This document shows positions 7,223 to 63,600 of a stretch of DNA of 64,000 nt, in pieces (the first letter of the stretch is position 1; each line of letters opens with the position of its first letter). The stretch covers positions 20,615 through 84,614 of the forward strand of contig CAZAXK010000001.1 in the NCBI GenBank assembly GCA_964489135.1, read 5' to 3'. The position numbers were made by a program, and so were the translations under genes. The notes beneath the pieces were generated by a model. That model made no database searches and was not told where the DNA came from. It saw only the letters and a list, made by a program, of their open reading frames with translations. The DNA is from an uncultured Candidatus Saccharibacteria bacterium (lineage in GTDB: Bacteria; Patescibacteriota; Minisyncoccia; Phycocordibacterales; WO2-35-19).

Positions 7223-8491
7223 TTAGACCGAGAGGATTTTGCGGAATCTCTCTTCGTCTTGGTATTTGCCGACAATGGCGAGATTGAGGCGTTTGTTTTG
7301 AATTATTTCTTTGGCCACTTTCTGAATATCGCTTGCGGTGATCTTCTCGATCTCCTTCTCCATTTCCTTCGGCGATTTTATTTCTTCACGCAGAATTTCC
7401 TGGAAGCCGTAGAAGTCAGCCAAGCTGTCCGACGATTCGAGCCCGAGGTAGAGATTGCCAATGATGTAGTCCTTGGCTTTGCGTAATTCCTCACTTGGAA
7501 TTTTTTCATCCCTAATCCTCTTGAGCTCACCCAGTATGGCTTTGATACCTTCTTCTACCCGAGTAGAATCGACACCAGCCGAAACGCAAAGCGATCCGTG
7601 ATCGGTAAAGGCGTCGTTGCCCGACCGAACATAGTAGCAGATGCCGAGCTCCTCTCGCATCTTCTGAAAGAGTCGCGAGCTCATCCCGCCACCCAAGACA
7701 GTGCTCAGAACTTTGAGGGCTGTGTTCTTTTTGCTATATACGTTGTAGGATCGTACGCCGATTATGAGGTGAGTTTGGTCGGTTTCTTTGTATTTGAGCT
7801 TTACTTCCGGCTTGGTCTGAACTTCTTTGACCTTGGTTTTCTTTTTATTTTTTGTTATAGGAATTTCCTTGAATGCTTCCGCGACTTTCTTGAAAATTTT
7901 GGCGGATTGCACTTTGCCCGCGACGACGATCGTGGTCGCTTCGGCGGTGTAATGCTCTCGTCGATACTTTACAAAATCCTCGCGTCCGAAAGAACGCACA
8001 TTGGCCGGTGTGCCAGCAATGCTGCGTCCGGCCGGCTGATCACCAAAAAGCAGTTCCGCATAGACATCATAAACGCTGCGATGAGGCAGGTCCTCATACA
8101 TATTTATTTCCTCCACGATCACACCTTTCTCTTTTTCCAAATCTTCGACGGGGAAAGTCGGGTTGAGATACATGTCGGCAATAATGTCGAGCAGTTTGTC
8201 GGTATGCTTGGGGTGAGCTTTGGCCCAATAGCCGGTAACTTCTTGGCTAGTAAAGGCGTTGTTCTGCGCGCCGAGCGAATCGAATTCTCTCGATATGTCG
8301 ATCGCTTTCGGGCGCTTCACCGTACCCTTGAAGCACATGTGCTCAAGAAAGTGCGATATCCCGTTCTCTTCCTTTTTCTCATATTCCGAGCCGGCCTCTA
8401 CTAAGCTCATGACGGTTACCGATGGCGCGTCGGCGATGGGTACCACGATAATTCTCATCCCATTTTTGAGCACTTTTTTGTTGTATTTCAT
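7223..8491 (-). CDS. M16 family zinc peptidase (pitrilysin/insulinase-like)
   Basis: HFLEHM (the HxxEH zinc-binding inverted motif) near the N-terminus; ~420 aa. Start placed at MKYNKK (8491). The ORF track start at 8527 would leave only 14 bp to the divergent gene. Confidence 0.8.
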   Translation of the reverse strand: MKYNKKVLKNGMRIIVVPIADAPSVTVMSLVEAGSEYEKKEENGISHFLEHMCFKGTVKRPKAIDISREFDSLGAQNNAFTSQEVTGYWAKAHPKHTDKLLDIIADMYLNPTFPVEDLEKEKGVIVEEINMYEDLPHRSVYDVYAELLFGDQPAGRSIAGTPANVRSFGREDFVKYRREHYTAEATTIVVAGKVQSAKIFKKVAEAFKEIPITKNKKKTKVKEVQTKPEVKLKYKETDQTHLIIGVRSYNVYSKKNTALKVLSTVLGGGMSSRLFQKMREELGICYYVRSGNDAFTDHGSLCVSAGVDSTRVEEGIKAILGELKRIRDEKIPSEELRKAKDYIIGNLYLGLESSDSLADFYGFQEILREEIKSPKEMEKEIEKITASDIQKVAKEIIQNKRLNLAIVGKYQDEERFRKILSV

Positions 8492-13413: not shown

Positions 13414-14790
13414 ATGCCAAGAGTTCAATTTAGTGATGTCGTTCCTCCAGAAAAACGAAGCATCCGCAACATTCCTATTCCAAATTCCGCACGGAGAACC
13501 AAAACTCCTTCTTCGCCGATCAAGACAAACGTTGAGCCAGAGATCTTTAACGAACCCATAATCGTAACCGACACCCCTGCTCCCAAGTACCCCGAATCGA
13601 ATCCGGTGAACATCACCAAGAAAAGAACCGAACACTACTATCACGAAGACGGCTTCCCAAATCCCAAGAAACGCAGATGGATTTTTGGCGTGCTTACCGT
13701 ATTTTGTATCGTTGCCTTTGTTGCAATAATGATGACCATCTTCTCTTCGGCAACCGTAGGCGTCATTCCTCAGTCACAAACTCTTGCGGTGGCAACCAAG
13801 ATCGAGGCCGGTCCGGAAATAGCAGGCGCAAGTAGAGTACCTTACGAAATCGTCAAAACAGTCAAGACCGACAGCGTCTCTGTCGATGCAACCGATGAGG
13901 AGATGGTAGAGCGCAAGGCCTCAGGCAAGATCGTAGTCTACAACAACTTTTCAAGCGAGCCGCAACGTCTCATTATTCGTACCCGATTTGAAAGTTCTGA
14001 CGGTCTTATTTATCGCATTCCCGAATCGATCACCGTACCGGGCAAAACGGCGACCGGACCTGGGTCTCTAGAAGTCGAGGTTTTCGCCGACGAACCGGGC
14101 GAGAAGTACAATATCGGCAAAACCGACTTCACCATCCCCGGATTCAAGACCGACAAGGACCGATACACCAATTTCTATGCCAAATCTTCATCCGAAATGT
14201 CTGGAGGACTAGTAGGAAAGGTAAAGAAGATAGATGCAAACACCCGAACGACCGCTCTCCAAAAGCTCGATGATAGTTTGCGAGGTGAAATCGAGAAGGA
14301 GCTTGCGCTGCAAACCCCTTCCGGCCTAGTAATGCTCAGCGGCTCGGTATTTTTCGAATCCAAGGAATTGCCTCAGAAAGATTCTGGTAGCACCGCAACC
14401 CTGACCAAAGAGGTTACCGGCTATGCACTCATGCTAAGAAAAGACCTTCTTTCTAAAGTCCTAGTTGATCAATACCTTTCGTCATCAACCGATTGGCAGG
14501 GTATTCAGGCGACTATCCCAGACTTTTCTAATATAAAAGTGTCTGAAAAGCCCACCTCCGTTCCAAAGGCCGGAGATATGGTGATGCTCAAAATCGAAGG
14601 CAACGCTTTGGCTAAGGCCCAAATTGACGCAAATATTTTAAGTGAGGCCCTAGCGGGTGCAAACCGCAACGCTATTTCCTCAATTGTCCAAAAAATCGCC
14701 GGAATAGAGAGTGTGAAGGTCAGCATCAGGCCGGCGTGGAAGCGCTCCTTGCCCGACCGAGGAGATAAAATATATATTGACATCGAATAA
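13414..14790 (+). CDS. hypothetical membrane-anchored protein
   Basis: Start taken at MPRVQF (ATG 13414) because TATAAT (13402-13407) lies exactly 6 nt upstream. The ORF track start at 13384 is in the same frame. One TM (WIFGVLTVFCIVAFVAIMMTIF) then a large extracytoplasmic domain with no recognisable motif. Confidence 0.5.
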   Translation: MPRVQFSDVVPPEKRSIRNIPIPNSARRTKTPSSPIKTNVEPEIFNEPIIVTDTPAPKYPESNPVNITKKRTEHYYHEDGFPNPKKRRWIFGVLTVFCIVAFVAIMMTIFSSATVGVIPQSQTLAVATKIEAGPEIAGASRVPYEIVKTVKTDSVSVDATDEEMVERKASGKIVVYNNFSSEPQRLIIRTRFESSDGLIYRIPESITVPGKTATGPGSLEVEVFADEPGEKYNIGKTDFTIPGFKTDKDRYTNFYAKSSSEMSGGLVGKVKKIDANTRTTALQKLDDSLRGEIEKELALQTPSGLVMLSGSVFFESKELPQKDSGSTATLTKEVTGYALMLRKDLLSKVLVDQYLSSSTDWQGIQATIPDFSNIKVSEKPTSVPKAGDMVMLKIEGNALAKAQIDANILSEALAGANRNAISSIVQKIAGIESVKVSIRPAWKRSLPDRGDKIYIDIE

Positions 14791-14833
14791 CGCTTTGTGA
14801 TAGTCTTTACCGACAAGCGTGTTTCATTAAAAA

Positions 14834-15091
14834 ATGACGGATAAAAAAGGCCAGGAAGTCAGTTTGGGTACAGTTACAGAAGCGCTTCCAAACGCGCTGT
14901 TCAAGGTAAGGCTCGATAAAGCCGAACCGGAAATAATGGCCTATATTTCGGGTAAAATGCGACTCAATCGGATCAAGGTCCTGATAGGGGATCGTGTAGA
15001 ACTTGTGCTTGACCCGTATGGGGGAAGAGCCAGAATTGTCCGCCGAATAGACAACAGAAAGACGCAAGGTGAGAACGAATTAGCCAAATGA
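14834..15091 (+). CDS. infA: translation initiation factor IF-1
   Basis: [17 protein letters not shown]...ISGKMR...IGDRV..DPYG...RIVRR is canonical IF-1. Confidence 0.9.
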
Positions 15092-15204
15092 AAGTCAAAG
15101 CTTCGGTCAAAAAAATATGCGCCAAATGCAAGCTGGTGCGCCGGCGTGGCGTTTTGTTTGTTATTTGCAAGAGCAACCCAAAGCACAAGCAAAGGCAAGG
15201 ATAA
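15088..15204 (+). CDS. rpmJ: 50S ribosomal protein L36
   Basis: 38-aa [41 protein letters not shown] with the C-x2-C...C-x4-H-like zinc ribbon. Start overlaps the infA stop (ATGA). Below the ORF track size cutoff. Confidence 0.85.
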
Positions 15205-15251
15205 TCGATGATAGATTTAAATTTTGAGATATAATTTTTGAGATAAATATA

Positions 15252-21727: not shown

Positions 21728-22819
21728 ATGGCAAAAAACTACTACGACATACTAGGGGTAGACAAAAAGGCGACCAAAGACGACATAAAGAAGGCCTTTC
21801 GTAAACTCGCCCACCAATATCACCCCGACAAAAAAGGCGGGGATGCTGAGAAATTCAAGGAGGTCAACGAGGCCTACTCGGTTCTTTCTGACGATCAGAA
21901 GCGCTCACAATACGACACCTACGGGCAAACTTTTGCAGGCGGTAGCGGACCAAACGGCTTCCAAGGCAACTGGCAGGACTTTGCGGAGCAATTCCGCAAT
22001 TCCGGCTTCGACTTTTCTGGTGCCCAAGGTTTTGGTGGAGCTGAATTCGATCTAGGCGACATCTTCGGCGAATTTTTCGGCGGGCGTAGACAGGAAGCCA
22101 AGCGAGGGCGCGATATTTCAATCGACATCGAGCTCTCTTTCGAGGAAGCGATATTCGGCACAGAGCGCAACATTTTGCTCAACAAGGTTTCGGTCTGTCA
22201 GACCTGCACGGGCACGGGAGGCAAGAAGGGCACTGAGATGCAGGAGTGTAAGCAGTGCAACGGTAAAGGTAAGATTCGTGAGCTCAAGCGTTCTTTCTTT
22301 GGATCGATCGAGATGACCCGCACTTGCGAAGGTTGCAGTGGCACCGGCAAAGTGCCCAAGGAAAAGTGTCCAATCTGCGACGGGCTTGGTATTCTCAAGA
22401 AGCAAGATGAGATCAAGATAAAGGTCCCCGCCGGTATCGAAAACGGCGAGATGATCCGACTTTCCGGAGCAGGCGAAGCAGTGAAAGGCGGACAGAGTGG
22501 CGACCTGTATATCAAAACCCACGTCAAGAAACACAAAACATTCCAGAAGCAGGGCAACGACTTGGTGATGAATTTGGATGTAAAGCTTTCAGATGCCCTT
22601 CTCGGTGCCGAATACCAAATAGAGACACTCGACGGCAAAGTCGGTCTCAAAATACCGGAAGGCGCGAATACCGGAGAAATACTTCAGATAAAAGGCCGGG
22701 GCGTCCCGAACGGCAATCGTAGAGGCGATATACTGGTTCACCTCAAAGTGGCTCTACCCAAAAAGCTCAATAAATCAGCAAGGAATCTTATCGAAAAGCT
22801 CAAAGAAGAGGGGATTTAG
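21728..22819 (+). CDS. dnaJ: molecular chaperone DnaJ
   Basis: J domain with HPD (YHPDKK), G/F-rich region, four CxxCxGxG zinc-finger repeats. Confidence 0.95.
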   Translation: MAKNYYDILGVDKKATKDDIKKAFRKLAHQYHPDKKGGDAEKFKEVNEAYSVLSDDQKRSQYDTYGQTFAGGSGPNGFQGNWQDFAEQFRNSGFDFSGAQGFGGAEFDLGDIFGEFFGGRRQEAKRGRDISIDIELSFEEAIFGTERNILLNKVSVCQTCTGTGGKKGTEMQECKQCNGKGKIRELKRSFFGSIEMTRTCEGCSGTGKVPKEKCPICDGLGILKKQDEIKIKVPAGIENGEMIRLSGAGEAVKGGQSGDLYIKTHVKKHKTFQKQGNDLVMNLDVKLSDALLGAEYQIETLDGKVGLKIPEGANTGEILQIKGRGVPNGNRRGDILVHLKVALPKKLNKSARNLIEKLKEEGI

Positions 22820-23080
22820 CCCAATGGTCAAGCATTAGGGGATGGATTTTTGGTACAAAAAAAGGAGGGTCCCGGAGCTCTAGGAGCTACAACGACACCC
22901 TCCACCACGGCCGCCCGCCGAACTAAAGAACTTGAGGGCAAGCAAAGAGCAATTAAAGTGCTCGGATCTTTGGAGCGGGACATTTGTCCCTATCCCTCAC
23001 GTGCCTGCCCCACAGAAAGACTACACCCCTGCCCAAAACGTGTCAAGCATAGAGCGGTGTGCACAACTTTGGGGACCTGT
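22820..23080. ncRNA. candidate structured ncRNA: GC-rich, hairpin-dense intergenic block between dnaJ and a leaderless cupin gene (class undetermined)
   Basis: About 250 nt at well above the local GC. Perfect GGAGGGT(N26)ACCCTCC hairpin (22863-22902) and further stems. Translation in the open frame is low-complexity and non-protein-like. The downstream gene has its own TATAAT-N6-ATG. Weak resemblance to RNase P P4-region motifs (AGGAGGGUCCCGGAGCUCUAGG; ACAGAAAG) but motif order and length do not fit well. Confidence 0.25.
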
Positions 23081-23092
23081 TATAATAAACTC

Positions 23093-23488
23093 ATGAAAAA
23101 ATATTATTTTGAAAATATCGAGGAGGCCACGAAAGAGAACGACAACTTCCGCAAGGTCGTCTTTACTGGTCCACATAGCCAAGTGGTGCTTATGTCGCTT
23201 TTACCCGGCGAGGATATCGGAGCAGAAGTTCACACAGTTGACCAATTCTTCCGAATTGAAGCCGGTGAAGGCAAGGGGATTGTCGACGGCGAAGAATTTG
23301 ATGTTAGCGACGGCTCAGCCGTGCTCGTACCAGCCGGACTTGAGCACAATTTCATCAACACCGGATCAACCGAGCTCAAGCTCTACACCATCTACTCGCC
23401 AGCCAATCACATAGACGGTCGAATCCACAAAACCAAATCCGAAGCAATGTCCGACACCGAAGACGAAGAGTTTGGGCATAGCAATTAG
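23093..23488 (+). CDS. cupin domain protein
   Basis: Start at MKKYYF (ATG 23093), 6 nt after TATAAT 23081-23086. Cupin motifs G..HTVDQFFRIEAG.G and VLVPAGLEHNF. The ORF track start at 22850 runs through the GC-rich non-coding-looking block. Confidence 0.7.
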   Translation: MKKYYFENIEEATKENDNFRKVVFTGPHSQVVLMSLLPGEDIGAEVHTVDQFFRIEAGEGKGIVDGEEFDVSDGSAVLVPAGLEHNFINTGSTELKLYTIYSPANHIDGRIHKTKSEAMSDTEDEEFGHSN

Positions 23489-29448: not shown

Positions 29449-29483
29449 TTGACACCATAAATCATAGTCAATATAATGTCAAG
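29449..29483 (+). promoter_or_regulatory. consensus sigma-70 promoter giving a leaderless transcript of the ABC exporter gene (TTGACA-N17-TATAAT-N6-ATG)
   Basis: TTGACA 29449-29454, 17-nt spacer, TATAAT 29472-29477, ATG at 29484. Confidence 0.55.
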
Positions 29484-31265
29484 ATGCACGAACAAAAATT
29501 TTCCAAAGTAGGCATCAGCGATGTCCTCAAATATCTTTGGCAAGCCACCATTCCTCAAAAGTGGGGATTTTTCTTTACCGTGTTCGGCTTTGCTGTCTCG
29601 AGCATAATCTCGGTTATAGTTCCGCTAATCTACAAAAAATTCTTTGATTTACTAGCATTAAACACAAGCAAGGATCTCCTGACTCCTCAATTGATGGAGA
29701 TTATTTTTGTCGTCTTCGCCCTTCACTCAGTCGTCTGGATCCTGTTCAGAACCGCAATGACGACCCTCAACCAAGTAGAAGCCAGAACAATGGCCCGTAT
29801 TAGGCAGATGTCTTTCGACTACATGATCAGACATTCATATTCCTTTTTCAGCAACAACTTTACCGGTTCTTTGGTCCAAAGAGTGGGCAGATTTAGCCGA
29901 TCCTTTGAGCGCCTCTATGACATGCTGGTTTTCAACGTCATCCCGCTCGCTATAAACATTATTGGTGTAATCATCGTAGTGTACTTCCAAGAACCCGTTA
30001 TCGCCTATATTATCCTCGGCTGGATATTGATCATCTTCGCCTTCAACTTTTTCTTCCAGCGCTGGAAACTCAAATACGACCTCTTGGCCACCAAGGCAGA
30101 CACAGCGACAAGTGCTGCGCTTTCTGATGCTATCTCAAACCAGAACACTATCATGTCTTTCGCCGGCTTCGAAAAGGAATCGGCCAATTTCAAAAAGGTT
30201 ACTCTCGACCAATCCGAAAAACAAAGTCGATCTTGGGATCTCTCGGTGATAAAAGATGCGGTCCAGCAGGGGCTCATGGTTGTGGTCGAGTTTGCCATCT
30301 TCTACTACGCCATAAAATTTTGGGAGAGGAATCTCATAAGTATTGGAACGTTTGTCCTCATACAGGCCTACATAATTGGACTCGCCAACCGACTTTGGGA
30401 CTTTGGCAGAATTATCAGAAACATCTACGAGAGCTTTGCTGATTCGAAGGAGATGGTAGAAATACTGGAAACCCCATACGAAATCAAAGACATCCCGAAC
30501 GCGCGCAAGCTTGAGACAAAAGTCGGTCATATCAGCTTCAAGAATGTTTCGTTTGCCTTCAACGAGACCCGCAACGTGATCGAAAATATCAATATCGAAA
30601 TAAAAGGCGGGGAGAAGGTGGCCCTAATCGGCCCATCGGGAGCCGGCAAATCAACCTTCGTGCGGCTGCTCTTGCGAATGTATGATGTCGCCTCAGGCCA
30701 AATCGAGATCGATGGTCAAAATATAAAAGAGGTCACTCAAGAGAGTTTGCGACGTGAGATCAGTCTGGTCCCGCAAGACCCGATCCTCTTCCACCGGACA
30801 CTTATGGAAAACATCCGCTATGGCAGGGAAGAGGCGAGTGATGAAGAAGTGATCGAGGCCTCACGACTCGCACACTGTGATGAGTTTATCGATGTTTTGC
30901 CCGAGAAATACAACACCTTTGTCGGCGAGCGCGGTATCAAACTTTCTGGTGGCGAAAGACAGAGGGTTGCGATTGCGAGAGCAATTTTGAAGAATGCCCC
31001 AATACTGATCTTGGATGAAGCCACCTCAAGTCTTGATTCTCACTCAGAACACCTCATTCAAGATGCGCTCGACAAATTGATGCAAGACAAGACAGTGATC
31101 GTCATTGCCCATCGACTCTCGACCATCAGAAAAATGGACCGAGTAATCGCCATAGACAACGGACAAGTGATCGAAGAGGGAAGCCACGAAGAGTTGCTCG
31201 CCCGCGAGCACAGTCTGTACAAAAATCTTTGGAACCTCCAAGCCGGCGGCTTCTTGCCGGAATAG
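29484..31265 (+). CDS. ABC transporter, fused permease/ATP-binding exporter (MsbA/type I exporter-like)
   Basis: N-terminal 6-TM domain, then an NBD with Walker A GPSGAGKST, signature LSGGERQRVAIARA, Walker B ILILDEATS and H-loop. Confidence 0.85.
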   Translation: MHEQKFSKVGISDVLKYLWQATIPQKWGFFFTVFGFAVSSIISVIVPLIYKKFFDLLALNTSKDLLTPQLMEIIFVVFALHSVVWILFRTAMTTLNQVEARTMARIRQMSFDYMIRHSYSFFSNNFTGSLVQRVGRFSRSFERLYDMLVFNVIPLAINIIGVIIVVYFQEPVIAYIILGWILIIFAFNFFFQRWKLKYDLLATKADTATSAALSDAISNQNTIMSFAGFEKESANFKKVTLDQSEKQSRSWDLSVIKDAVQQGLMVVVEFAIFYYAIKFWERNLISIGTFVLIQAYIIGLANRLWDFGRIIRNIYESFADSKEMVEILETPYEIKDIPNARKLETKVGHISFKNVSFAFNETRNVIENINIEIKGGEKVALIGPSGAGKSTFVRLLLRMYDVASGQIEIDGQNIKEVTQESLRREISLVPQDPILFHRTLMENIRYGREEASDEEVIEASRLAHCDEFIDVLPEKYNTFVGERGIKLSGGERQRVAIARAILKNAPILILDEATSSLDSHSEHLIQDALDKLMQDKTVIVIAHRLSTIRKMDRVIAIDNGQVIEEGSHEELLAREHSLYKNLWNLQAGGFLPE

Positions 31266-41775: not shown

Positions 41776-41965
41776 CAACACGGCTCAAATCAAGAGCGCT
41801 ACATTCGCCCTATAGTATACTACCCAAAAGATATATTGTGCGACGTTACTAATCTTTGGTAGTCGGCCACCCCCTTAGTCATTACACAGCCCAAAATTTT
41901 TTCTCGCCAAAATTTATTTTTTAACATTCTTCCCTATTAAGAAAGCTCACCCATGCCAAGCAAAA

Positions 41966-42043
41966 CAAAAAGCCCCCTGTTTGGCACAGAGGGGCTTTTT
42001 GTTTTTGGCAGGATAGGGGCCATGCGACCCCCTGCCCTACCCT
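41966..42043. terminator. two adjacent hairpins forming a bidirectional terminator between convergent genes
   Basis: AAAAAGCCCCCTGTTTGGCACAGAGGGGCTTTTTGTTTTT (hairpin with A/T runs on both sides) followed by GGCAGGATAGGGGCCATGCGACCCCCTGCC (nested stems GGCAGG/CCTGCC and AGGGG/CCCCT). Confidence 0.55.
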
Positions 42044-42448: not shown

Positions 42449-42783
42449 AGTACCACTTATGCTACCTGCAATGACAAGTAGCCCTAGAGCTGTAGTTCCA
42501 AAAATAAGCCAATTGTTTAATTTTAATCCACACTGCCCTTACCCAAACAGACCTTACACCAAGAGCGTGCGGGAGGTGAAAAGTGAAAGAATCGGAGCGC
42601 GACTCATAAAGTTTGCCCCGCTTTGACACTCTTCGCCTCTCTCATATCTGGCTAAGCGCCTTTCCTGCATAGCAGGATCAGCTCTGCCCAGATAAGCAAA
42701 AATCCAGCATTCACTGGACCTGCTATAATAATAGCACTTTTAACTCTTGCTGTCAATAGTAAAGTGTGGTCTAATTTTGGACC

Positions 42784-63482: not shown

Positions 63483-63529
63483 TAATAAAATTGTAGCATC
63501 AATAAATGCCAGTTGGAAACAAATTAATG

Positions 63530-63600
63530 TGCGACTAGGGAGAATCGAACTCCCGTCTAATGCTTGGGAAGCACTCATTCTGCCACTAAACTATAGTCGC
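63530..63600 (-). tRNA. tRNA-Gly (anticodon CCC), 71 nt, CCA not encoded
   Basis: Minus-strand sequence GCGACTATAGTTTAGTGGCAGAATGAGTGCTTCCCAAGCATTAGACGGGAGTTCGATTCTCCCTAGTCGCA. 7-bp acceptor stem GCGACTA/TAGTCGC; T-arm GGGAG-TTCGATT-CTCCC; anticodon stem AGTGC/GCATT with loop TTCCCAA. Confidence 0.8.

Follow-up and report, generated by a model that had tools for sequence, protein, structure and literature searches.

What does the spacer downstream of dnaJ encode, and on which strand? In the window, that is, the whole 64-kb stretch of DNA analysed here, the block at 22820–23080 corresponds to the 273-nt spacer between dnaJ and a cupin gene, which is in turn followed by an AdoMet-decarboxylase-like gene. 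The two genes that frame the spacer are:

21728–22819, plus strand: dnaJ (Pfam DnaJ, DnaJ_CXXCXGXG and DnaJ_C), context, convergent with the small RNA described below
23093–23488, plus strand: Cupin_2 gene of 131 aa, context, divergent from the small RNA

A preliminary description had proposed a structured non-coding RNA on the plus strand of this spacer, recalling RNase P RNA and possibly related to 6S or SRP RNA. Our analysis indicates that an RNA is probably encoded here, on the opposite strand and outside those classes. The locus is real and mildly interesting, and it carries a lesson of method: a GC-rich spacer pointed to the right place, while the strand and the class needed correction.

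The GC content of the spacer amounts to 53.6% across 22820–23080 and 56.5% in its core (22865–23080), compared with 46.5% for the whole window and 50–51% for dnaK and dnaJ, so that the jump to about 60% described earlier was overstated. As a sign of structural RNA this enrichment carries little weight, with 6.8% of all 261-nt windows matching or exceeding the block. The spacer had also been called hairpin-dense, a description that its folding does not bear out: taken whole, it folded no better than its shuffled versions, with a minimum free energy (MFE) z-score of −1.45 for the plus strand, where 12 of 200 shuffles folded as well, and −0.39 for the minus strand. The perfect GGAGGGT-N26-ACCCTCC hairpin reported before is present, with arms at 22864–22870 and 22897–22903 separated by 26 nt, and is the minus-strand terminator read backwards.

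The minus strand of the spacer carries a promoter and a terminator that delimit a predicted small RNA:

23041–23046, minus strand: TTGACA, the −35 box of the small-RNA promoter, matching the consensus perfectly and shared by all six alleles
23018–23023, minus strand: −10 box TAGTCT, 17 nt past the −35 box; the infA promoter (14801–14806) has the same hexamer
22857–23011, minus strand: predicted small RNA of about 155 nt, the span from promoter to terminator
22864–22903, minus strand: terminator hairpin GGAGGGU ... inner AGCUC-CUA-GAGCU ... ACCCUCC, −21.6 kcal/mol
22857–22863, minus strand: terminator U7 tract, seen on the plus strand as AAAAAAA

The 5′ end of the predicted transcript was placed at the 7th nt after the −10 box and the 3′ end at the end of the U-tract; we infer both ends, and expression itself, from these signals. 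The allele set comprises six distinct spacer versions, all from metagenome assemblies (the window, L002, L003, L005, L109 and L111); L001 is identical to the window, and L087, L092, L004, L112 and L113 are partial loci. On its minus strand, every full spacer presents TTGACA, a gap of 16–17 nt and TAnnnT, followed 150–200 nt further on by a GC-rich hairpin with U5–7. The −10 box of the relatives reads TAATGT, TAAGGT or TAGTAT, again at 16–17 nt from the −35 box, and their predicted transcripts measure 158–201 nt. The arrangement TTGACA-N16–18-TAnnnT occurs six times in the window against 1.43 expected, and three of the five other sites lie directly upstream of genes (infA, the leaderless ATG at 29484 and gene 45981); the predicted small-RNA promoter, a perfect one, belongs to a type found at real gene starts in the window. 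Its terminator ranks among the three strongest hairpin-plus-T-run sites in the 64 kb, and a hairpin with a U-run recurs at the same position in all six alleles and in the partial locus L087, with different stem sequences. A descriptor running from promoter to terminator matched every allele of the locus; in the 657 kb searched, both strands included, it had only two further matches.

The terminator is oriented for the minus strand only, a plus-strand RNA having no U-run after the hairpin, and no promoter-like site was found on the plus strand of the spacer. The G-U pairs of the helices described below fit the minus strand as well, and the minus-strand core was more stable than the plus-strand one in three of four cores. 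The minus strand is favoured because the conserved promoter, the terminator U-tract and the G-U pairs all point there. Judged from the sequence, the spacer probably holds, on its minus strand, an independent and lineage-specific gene for a small non-coding RNA, equipped with a promoter and a terminator of its own (rough probability, 0.6); this gene runs towards dnaJ and lies back-to-back with the promoter of the leaderless cupin gene.

Other transcription signals were noted in the window. Its only other match to the promoter-to-terminator descriptor, at 7542 on the plus strand, has a weak hairpin (−14.1 kcal/mol) and lies in a region of long ORFs overlapping on both strands. The infA promoter is TTGACA-18-TAGTCT, sharing its −10 hexamer with the small-RNA promoter, and an apparent 460-nt gap at 14777–15251 contains infA (14834–15091) and rpmJ (15088–15204), before rpsM. 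A symmetric bidirectional terminator, AAAAAGCCCCCTGTTTGGCACAGAGGGGCTTTTT, occupies 41957–42006, so canonical intrinsic terminators are in use in this genome. A 335-nt gap between two minus-strand genes (42449–42783) holds a perfect promoter (42756 to 42728) with a small hairpin and T5 directly after it (near 42702); this gap had no Rfam match, and its element may represent a leader, an attenuator or a further small RNA.

In the proposed scheme, RNA polymerase with the housekeeping sigma factor would start about 7 nt past TTGACA-17-TAGTCT, near 23011. The 5′ domain of the RNA would be closed by a helix, P1, enclosing hairpins P2 and P3 in this genome; a conserved unpaired stretch, CAAGUUC, would come next, then a U/C-rich linker with GCGGCC, and transcription would end at the hairpin and U7 terminator, at 22857. 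From 5′ to 3′, the predicted elements upstream of the terminator are:

23002–23011, minus strand: P1 5′ strand GGGGCAGGCA, pairing with 22935–22944 and covarying across alleles
22972–22995, minus strand: P2, a two-part hairpin GGA..GGGAC AAAU GUCCC..UCC of the predicted fold
22964–22971, minus strand: AAAGAUCC, a junction predicted to be single-stranded and conserved among type I alleles (see below)
22947–22963, minus strand: P3 hairpin GAGCA-CUUUAAU-UGCUC, recovered by RNAalifold
22935–22944, minus strand: P1 3′ strand UGCUUGCCCU, partner of the predicted RNA 5′ end
22928–22934, minus strand: CAAGUUC motif, predicted to be single-stranded; it follows P1 by 2–4 nt in every allele, reading AAGAUU in L003
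22909–22914, minus strand: GCGGCC, the window version of GC(U/G)GGCC, between P1 and the terminator

Delimited in this way, the window RNA folded with an MFE z-score of −2.4; four RNA bodies gave inconsistent values against shuffles (−1.9, −2.1, 0.0 and +1.1). As the alleles do not align, RNAalifold applied to MAFFT alignments recovered P3 and the terminator alone; P1 was therefore tested in each allele separately and on a small alignment registered by hand. When each allele was folded alone and unconstrained, P1 was predicted separately in all of them with core-pair probabilities of 0.72–1.0 (in the window, 0.83–1.0 for nt 2–10 and 0.56 for the terminal G1-U77), and its 3′ segment ended 2–4 nt before AAGUUC every time. 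The observed pairing was reached by at most 3 of 150 whole-sequence shuffles. When shuffling was confined to the inside of the two pairing segments, it was reached in 19% (window), 2.7, 3.3, 3.3, 5.3 and 5.3% of trials, some P1 pairing coming easily because the strands are G-rich and C-rich.

The P1 strands fall into four sequence classes: GGGCAGGC/GCUUGCCC; GGAGGAUG/CAUCCUCC; GGGGACC/GGUCCCC, which resembles GGGACCCC/GGGGUCCC; and GGGAGGGG/CCCCUCCC. In the hand-registered alignment, 39 of 40 cells pair and both sides are changed in six of eight pairs. The covariation score was 1.0 versus 0.29 in shuffles (0 of 500 reached it), with all slid registers scoring lower, in a test that leans towards structure because the register was set from each sequence's own predicted helix, with the AAGUUC landmark as anchor. 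P1 5′ strands also bind the 3′ strands of their own class best, at −21.6 versus −12.1 kcal/mol on average.

Compensatory changes extend beyond these pairs. P3, with pair probabilities of 0.56–0.64 in the window and 0.64–1.0 in the relatives, differs from its counterparts in L002 and L005 by a change of G-C to A-U; between L003 and L109, P3 changes from GGGGUC/GAUCCC to GGAAUC/GAUUCC and an extension of P1 from G-C to A-U. The two-part P2 hairpin recurs in L002 with a different inner stem, and the conserved motif [U/A]GAG(AG)GGRA (23005–22993), found in six of six alleles, overlaps its start. GC(U/G)GGCC, read by eye from the transcripts, is present in five of the six. In the window, L002, L003 and L109, the interior of the 5′ domain is a three-way junction; L005 has additional hairpins, and L111 a single long hairpin in place of P2 and P3. 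An RNA with a fixed tertiary fold seldom has an interior so little conserved between classes. Within the limits of few alleles and a structure-fitted register, the structure or sequence of the small RNA appears to be under selection.

By affinity, the cupin and DnaJ proteins belong with Patescibacteria (Paceibacterota/Parcubacteria-like metagenome-assembled genomes). The order dnaK-dnaJ-long spacer-cupin was found in few lineages: L002/L008, L003/L091, L005/L007/L110, L109 and L111. The four nearest DnaJ clusters among the searched proteins lie at 82% identity or above; at 78% or below, the spacers measure 9–80 nt and other genes stand downstream, L011 having a longer gap. No second copy or distant homologue was found by blastn, or by nhmmer with a four-allele profile, in the window and the loci through L093, nor did blastn find any in phage and plasmid collections. 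Pattern scans returned 0 matches and then 15 chance matches in unrelated contexts in JGI metagenomes, and 0 matches in viral contigs. The scope is narrow: in assemblies amounting to some 15 billion catalogued proteins, the element occurs in about six lineages.

Between the window and its relatives, four-fold degenerate sites of dnaJ and the cupin gene are 41–42% identical, near saturation, and the promoter and terminator are retained in all six alleles despite this divergence. The conserved blocks comprise the minus-strand promoter, the terminator position, the cupin extended −10, CAAGUUC and a 25-nt block, AAAGAUCC-GAGCACUUUAAUUGCUC, of which 21 of 25 positions are identical between the window and L002.

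The 5′ domain occurs in three types: I (window, L002 and L005), II (L003 and L109) and III (L111). In L002, L003 and L111, the dnaJ 3′ ends and the first 50–65 nt of the spacer are 96–98% identical and the cupin-side sequence is 89–96% identical; inside these near-identical flanks sit three unrelated RNA bodies (L002, 2624–2938; L003, 2582–2788; L111, 751–1071). L002 and L003 are 87% identical at four-fold sites, with RNA regions at shuffle level. L005 and L109 likewise have flanks 91–92% identical around unrelated RNA bodies. Types I and II are each found in two flank lineages, and between these they have diverged at roughly the pace of the flanks or less: L003 and L109 share about 85% identity in the type II 5′ domain, versus 71% in the dnaJ 3′ ends. 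Two alleles are mosaics: in L109, an L002-like AAGUUCUCU accompanies a type II 5′ domain, and in L111 the 5′ domain is of type III and the 3′ part and terminator resemble those of the window.

This replacement of the 5′ domain between strains that are otherwise near-identical illustrates, on a small but concrete scale, how rapidly small RNAs can evolve. It might mean that the locus is a polymorphic small-RNA cassette, with at least three deeply diverged 5′-domain classes between flanks that share 92–98% identity on the dnaJ side within a lineage; we regard this reading as improbable. If true, it would imply long-maintained alleles or repeated recombination, as could be expected of an RNA that interacts with a fast-evolving partner, such as a phage, a host cell or the toxin of an RNA-antitoxin or immunity-type system. 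As a separate observation, the assemblies of L092 and L004 (sample ERR4450735, one project) break inside the spacer, which fits with mixed alleles in one population.

The rapid turnover of the interior between close strains also feeds the alternative that retains most plausibility, namely that no functional RNA is made here: the hairpin would act as a terminator or 3′ stabiliser for dnaJ, and the minus-strand promoter would be a by-product of cupin control whose transcript is noise. The position of the hairpin, 44 nt past the dnaJ stop, would suit that role, and the inconsistent folding z-scores and the restriction of the element to a very small clade agree with it. A dnaJ terminator sits poorly, however, with a U-tract found on the minus-strand side only. 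A noise transcript would likewise leave unaccounted for the perfect −35 box and TAnnnT at 16–17 nt in six alleles whose synonymous sites are near saturation, the covariation of P1, the AAGUUC and GAGGGA-type motifs kept within the transcript, and a type II 5′ domain better conserved than the neighbouring dnaJ 3′ ends. On balance we consider the absence of a functional RNA unlikely.

A stem-closed domain followed by a terminator, with only antisense dnaJ downstream on the minus strand, would also be expected of a conditional terminator (riboswitch-like or an attenuator) controlling antisense read-through into dnaJ-dnaK, in which the P1 3′ strand may pair with the terminator 5′ strand. In Listeria, B12 riboswitch-AspocR is a transcriptional OFF riboswitch driving an antisense RNA. 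The present locus resembles riboswitch- or attenuator-driven antisense RNAs in its stem-closed multi-helix domain, its intrinsic terminator and the antisense neighbour operon downstream, and by eye the P1 3′ strand complements the terminator 5′ half in the window (GCCCUC/GAGGGU) and in L111 (AUCCUCC/GGGGGAU). In L002, L005, L003 and L109, however, the terminator has reversed polarity (C-rich 5′ half), so the same P1/terminator switch cannot form there; the alternative pairing is thus impossible in four of six alleles. The locus differs further from such RNAs in its variable interior and in matching no aptamer: interiors that differ among three allele classes fit a ligand-binding aptamer poorly, and no Rfam riboswitch matched. 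Conditional termination is, in our view, very unlikely. A riboswitch of any Rfam class was also considered in its own right and rejected, with no match, no gene downstream on the minus strand and a 5′ domain that varies between allele classes.

Searches for known RNA families bear on the classes first proposed. Across the whole window, Rfam 15 at the gathering score yielded only a tRNA-Gly (63530–63600, also given as 63529–63600), and ARAGORN likewise found this tRNA and nothing in the spacer. At E ≤ 10, nothing relevant was detected on either strand of 22600–23300, RNase P, 6S, SRP and tmRNA included, and at E ≤ 5 the spacers of L002, L003 and L005 had no match. The resemblance to RNase P RNA is not supported because no Rfam family matches either strand, and the strings that had suggested it are coincidental; the string ACAGAAAG (23012–23019) lies between the predicted minus-strand transcript start and the −10 box, overlapping the latter. 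A structured plus-strand RNA belonging to a known class (RNase P, 6S, SRP or tmRNA) would thus draw on short by-eye string resemblances and a somewhat raised GC content only, and has against it these searches, the lack of a plus-strand promoter in the spacer, a plus-strand z-score of −1.45 and the 155–200 nt available versus the 330–400 nt of RNase P RNA, which makes it extremely improbable.

Individual families were rejected on similar grounds. For bacterial RNase P RNA (RF00010/RF00011) there was no covariance-model match, the spacer being 273 nt and the unit 155 nt long. 6S RNA is rod-shaped, with its 5′ and 3′ ends paired around a central bubble; neither RF00013 nor its relatives matched, and the present RNA has its 5′ end paired to its middle part and a terminator hairpin at its 3′ end. 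Bacterial SRP RNA, tmRNA and tRNA gave no covariance-model or ARAGORN match in the spacer. The locus is like RNase P, 6S and SRP RNAs in being non-coding, in having a GC content above its surroundings and in containing hairpins, and unlike them in strand, size, model match and the mid-RNA pairing of its 5′ end. The P3 loop (CUUCAAU, CUUUAAU) has the look of a tRNA anticodon loop; no tRNA model matched, and the loop differs in types II and III. GGA motifs as in a CsrA-type decoy are present, yet are expected in G-rich sequence.

A coding role was examined from the side of the cupin gene, whose own promoter and leaderless start, as claimed before, are indeed present:

23078–23095, plus strand: cupin promoter and leaderless start, TGTTATAAT-N6-ATG; gene 29484 has the same layout

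The extended −10, TGTTATAAT, lies at 23078–23086, with the ATG at 23093 after N6, and TGGTATAAT-N6-ATG is kept in three relatives. In all three syntenic relatives tested (L002, L003 and L005), a stop codon interrupts the frame 9 codons upstream of the cupin ATG, so the 91 codons open upstream of it in the window are an accident. The best 120 cupin homologues measure 125–155 aa and are without a long N-terminal extension, and the 81 codons of the ORF at 22850–23488 that lie upstream of the cupin ATG had no Pfam match. The earlier dismissal of the spacer ORF as nonsense is thereby upheld, and the cupin has no N-terminal extension. In a six-frame cross-comparison, the spacer showed no conserved reading frame, with similarity at the nucleotide level only; frames shift between alleles at conserved nucleotides, and no record of the locus has a gene call inside the spacer. 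A coding feature, whether an N-terminal extension of the cupin suggested by the open codons or a 51-aa minus-strand protein (ORF 22828–22983) with GAGGGA-N9-AUG in front, can be set aside as a most remote prospect, given the stop codon and homologue lengths for the former, a frame running through the terminator for the latter, and no frame-specific similarity or Pfam match for either.

Around the cupin start we also noted that the leaderless layout is repeated at 29449–29486, where TTGACA-17-TATAAT-N6-ATG precedes gene 29484–31265. In L005 (2942–2962), a perfect palindrome, TACACAGG-N5-CCTGTGTA, lies between the small-RNA promoter and the cupin −35 box (TTGAGT). It is also present in L002 (duplicated), L003, L110, L111, L112 and L113, and has been lost from the window together with about 70 nt. 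The palindrome looks like an operator for a shared regulator.

Taken as a small RNA gene on the minus strand, the locus belongs to a generic class. Trans-encoded bacterial small regulatory RNAs, such as the Rsa RNAs of Staphylococcus, have their own promoter and Rho-independent terminator. Like them, it is a free-standing intergenic unit of about 150–200 nt with a sigma-70-type promoter and no reading frame, has a structured 5′ part, a conserved unpaired stretch and a terminator hairpin with U tail, and shows a narrow phylogenetic range and fast sequence turnover. Unlike described small-RNA families, it has no sequence or covariance-model relation to any of them. It is also set apart from trans-encoded small RNAs by its host, a member of the Patescibacteria (CPR), and by its diverged 5′-domain alleles between near-identical flanks. 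A literature search found no small regulatory RNA described for the Patescibacteria, whose genomes are small and have few recognisable regulators.

A structured 5′ domain, an exposed conserved linker and a terminator with U tail are the usual layout of trans-acting riboregulators, and by this analogy the small RNA is probably one. The layout makes base pairing with mRNAs, or protein binding, via the exposed conserved linker its most likely function, with the linker between P1 and the terminator as the likeliest interaction surface; the stem-closed 5′ domain would serve as a stabilising or specificity module. Mode of action and targets are what we infer from this likeness. Within the window, a short blastn search gave no antisense match of more than 11 nt to the small RNA, and a duplex scan against start regions returned only long, uninformative duplexes. 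With its precise predicted ends, covarying helix and exposed motifs, the locus is directly checkable in strand-specific metatranscriptomes, and interest in it would rise with confirmed expression and allele polymorphism.

A further unit of this kind was seen in a distant Patescibacterium whose DnaJ is 57% identical. At L033:3574–3794 (minus strand), some 190 nt running from a promoter to a terminator converge on dnaJ and end at the dnaJ stop codon. This unit belongs to no Rfam family and shows no evident homology with the RNA of the window; its fold has a z-score of −2.3, and it contains a possible 30-aa ORF.
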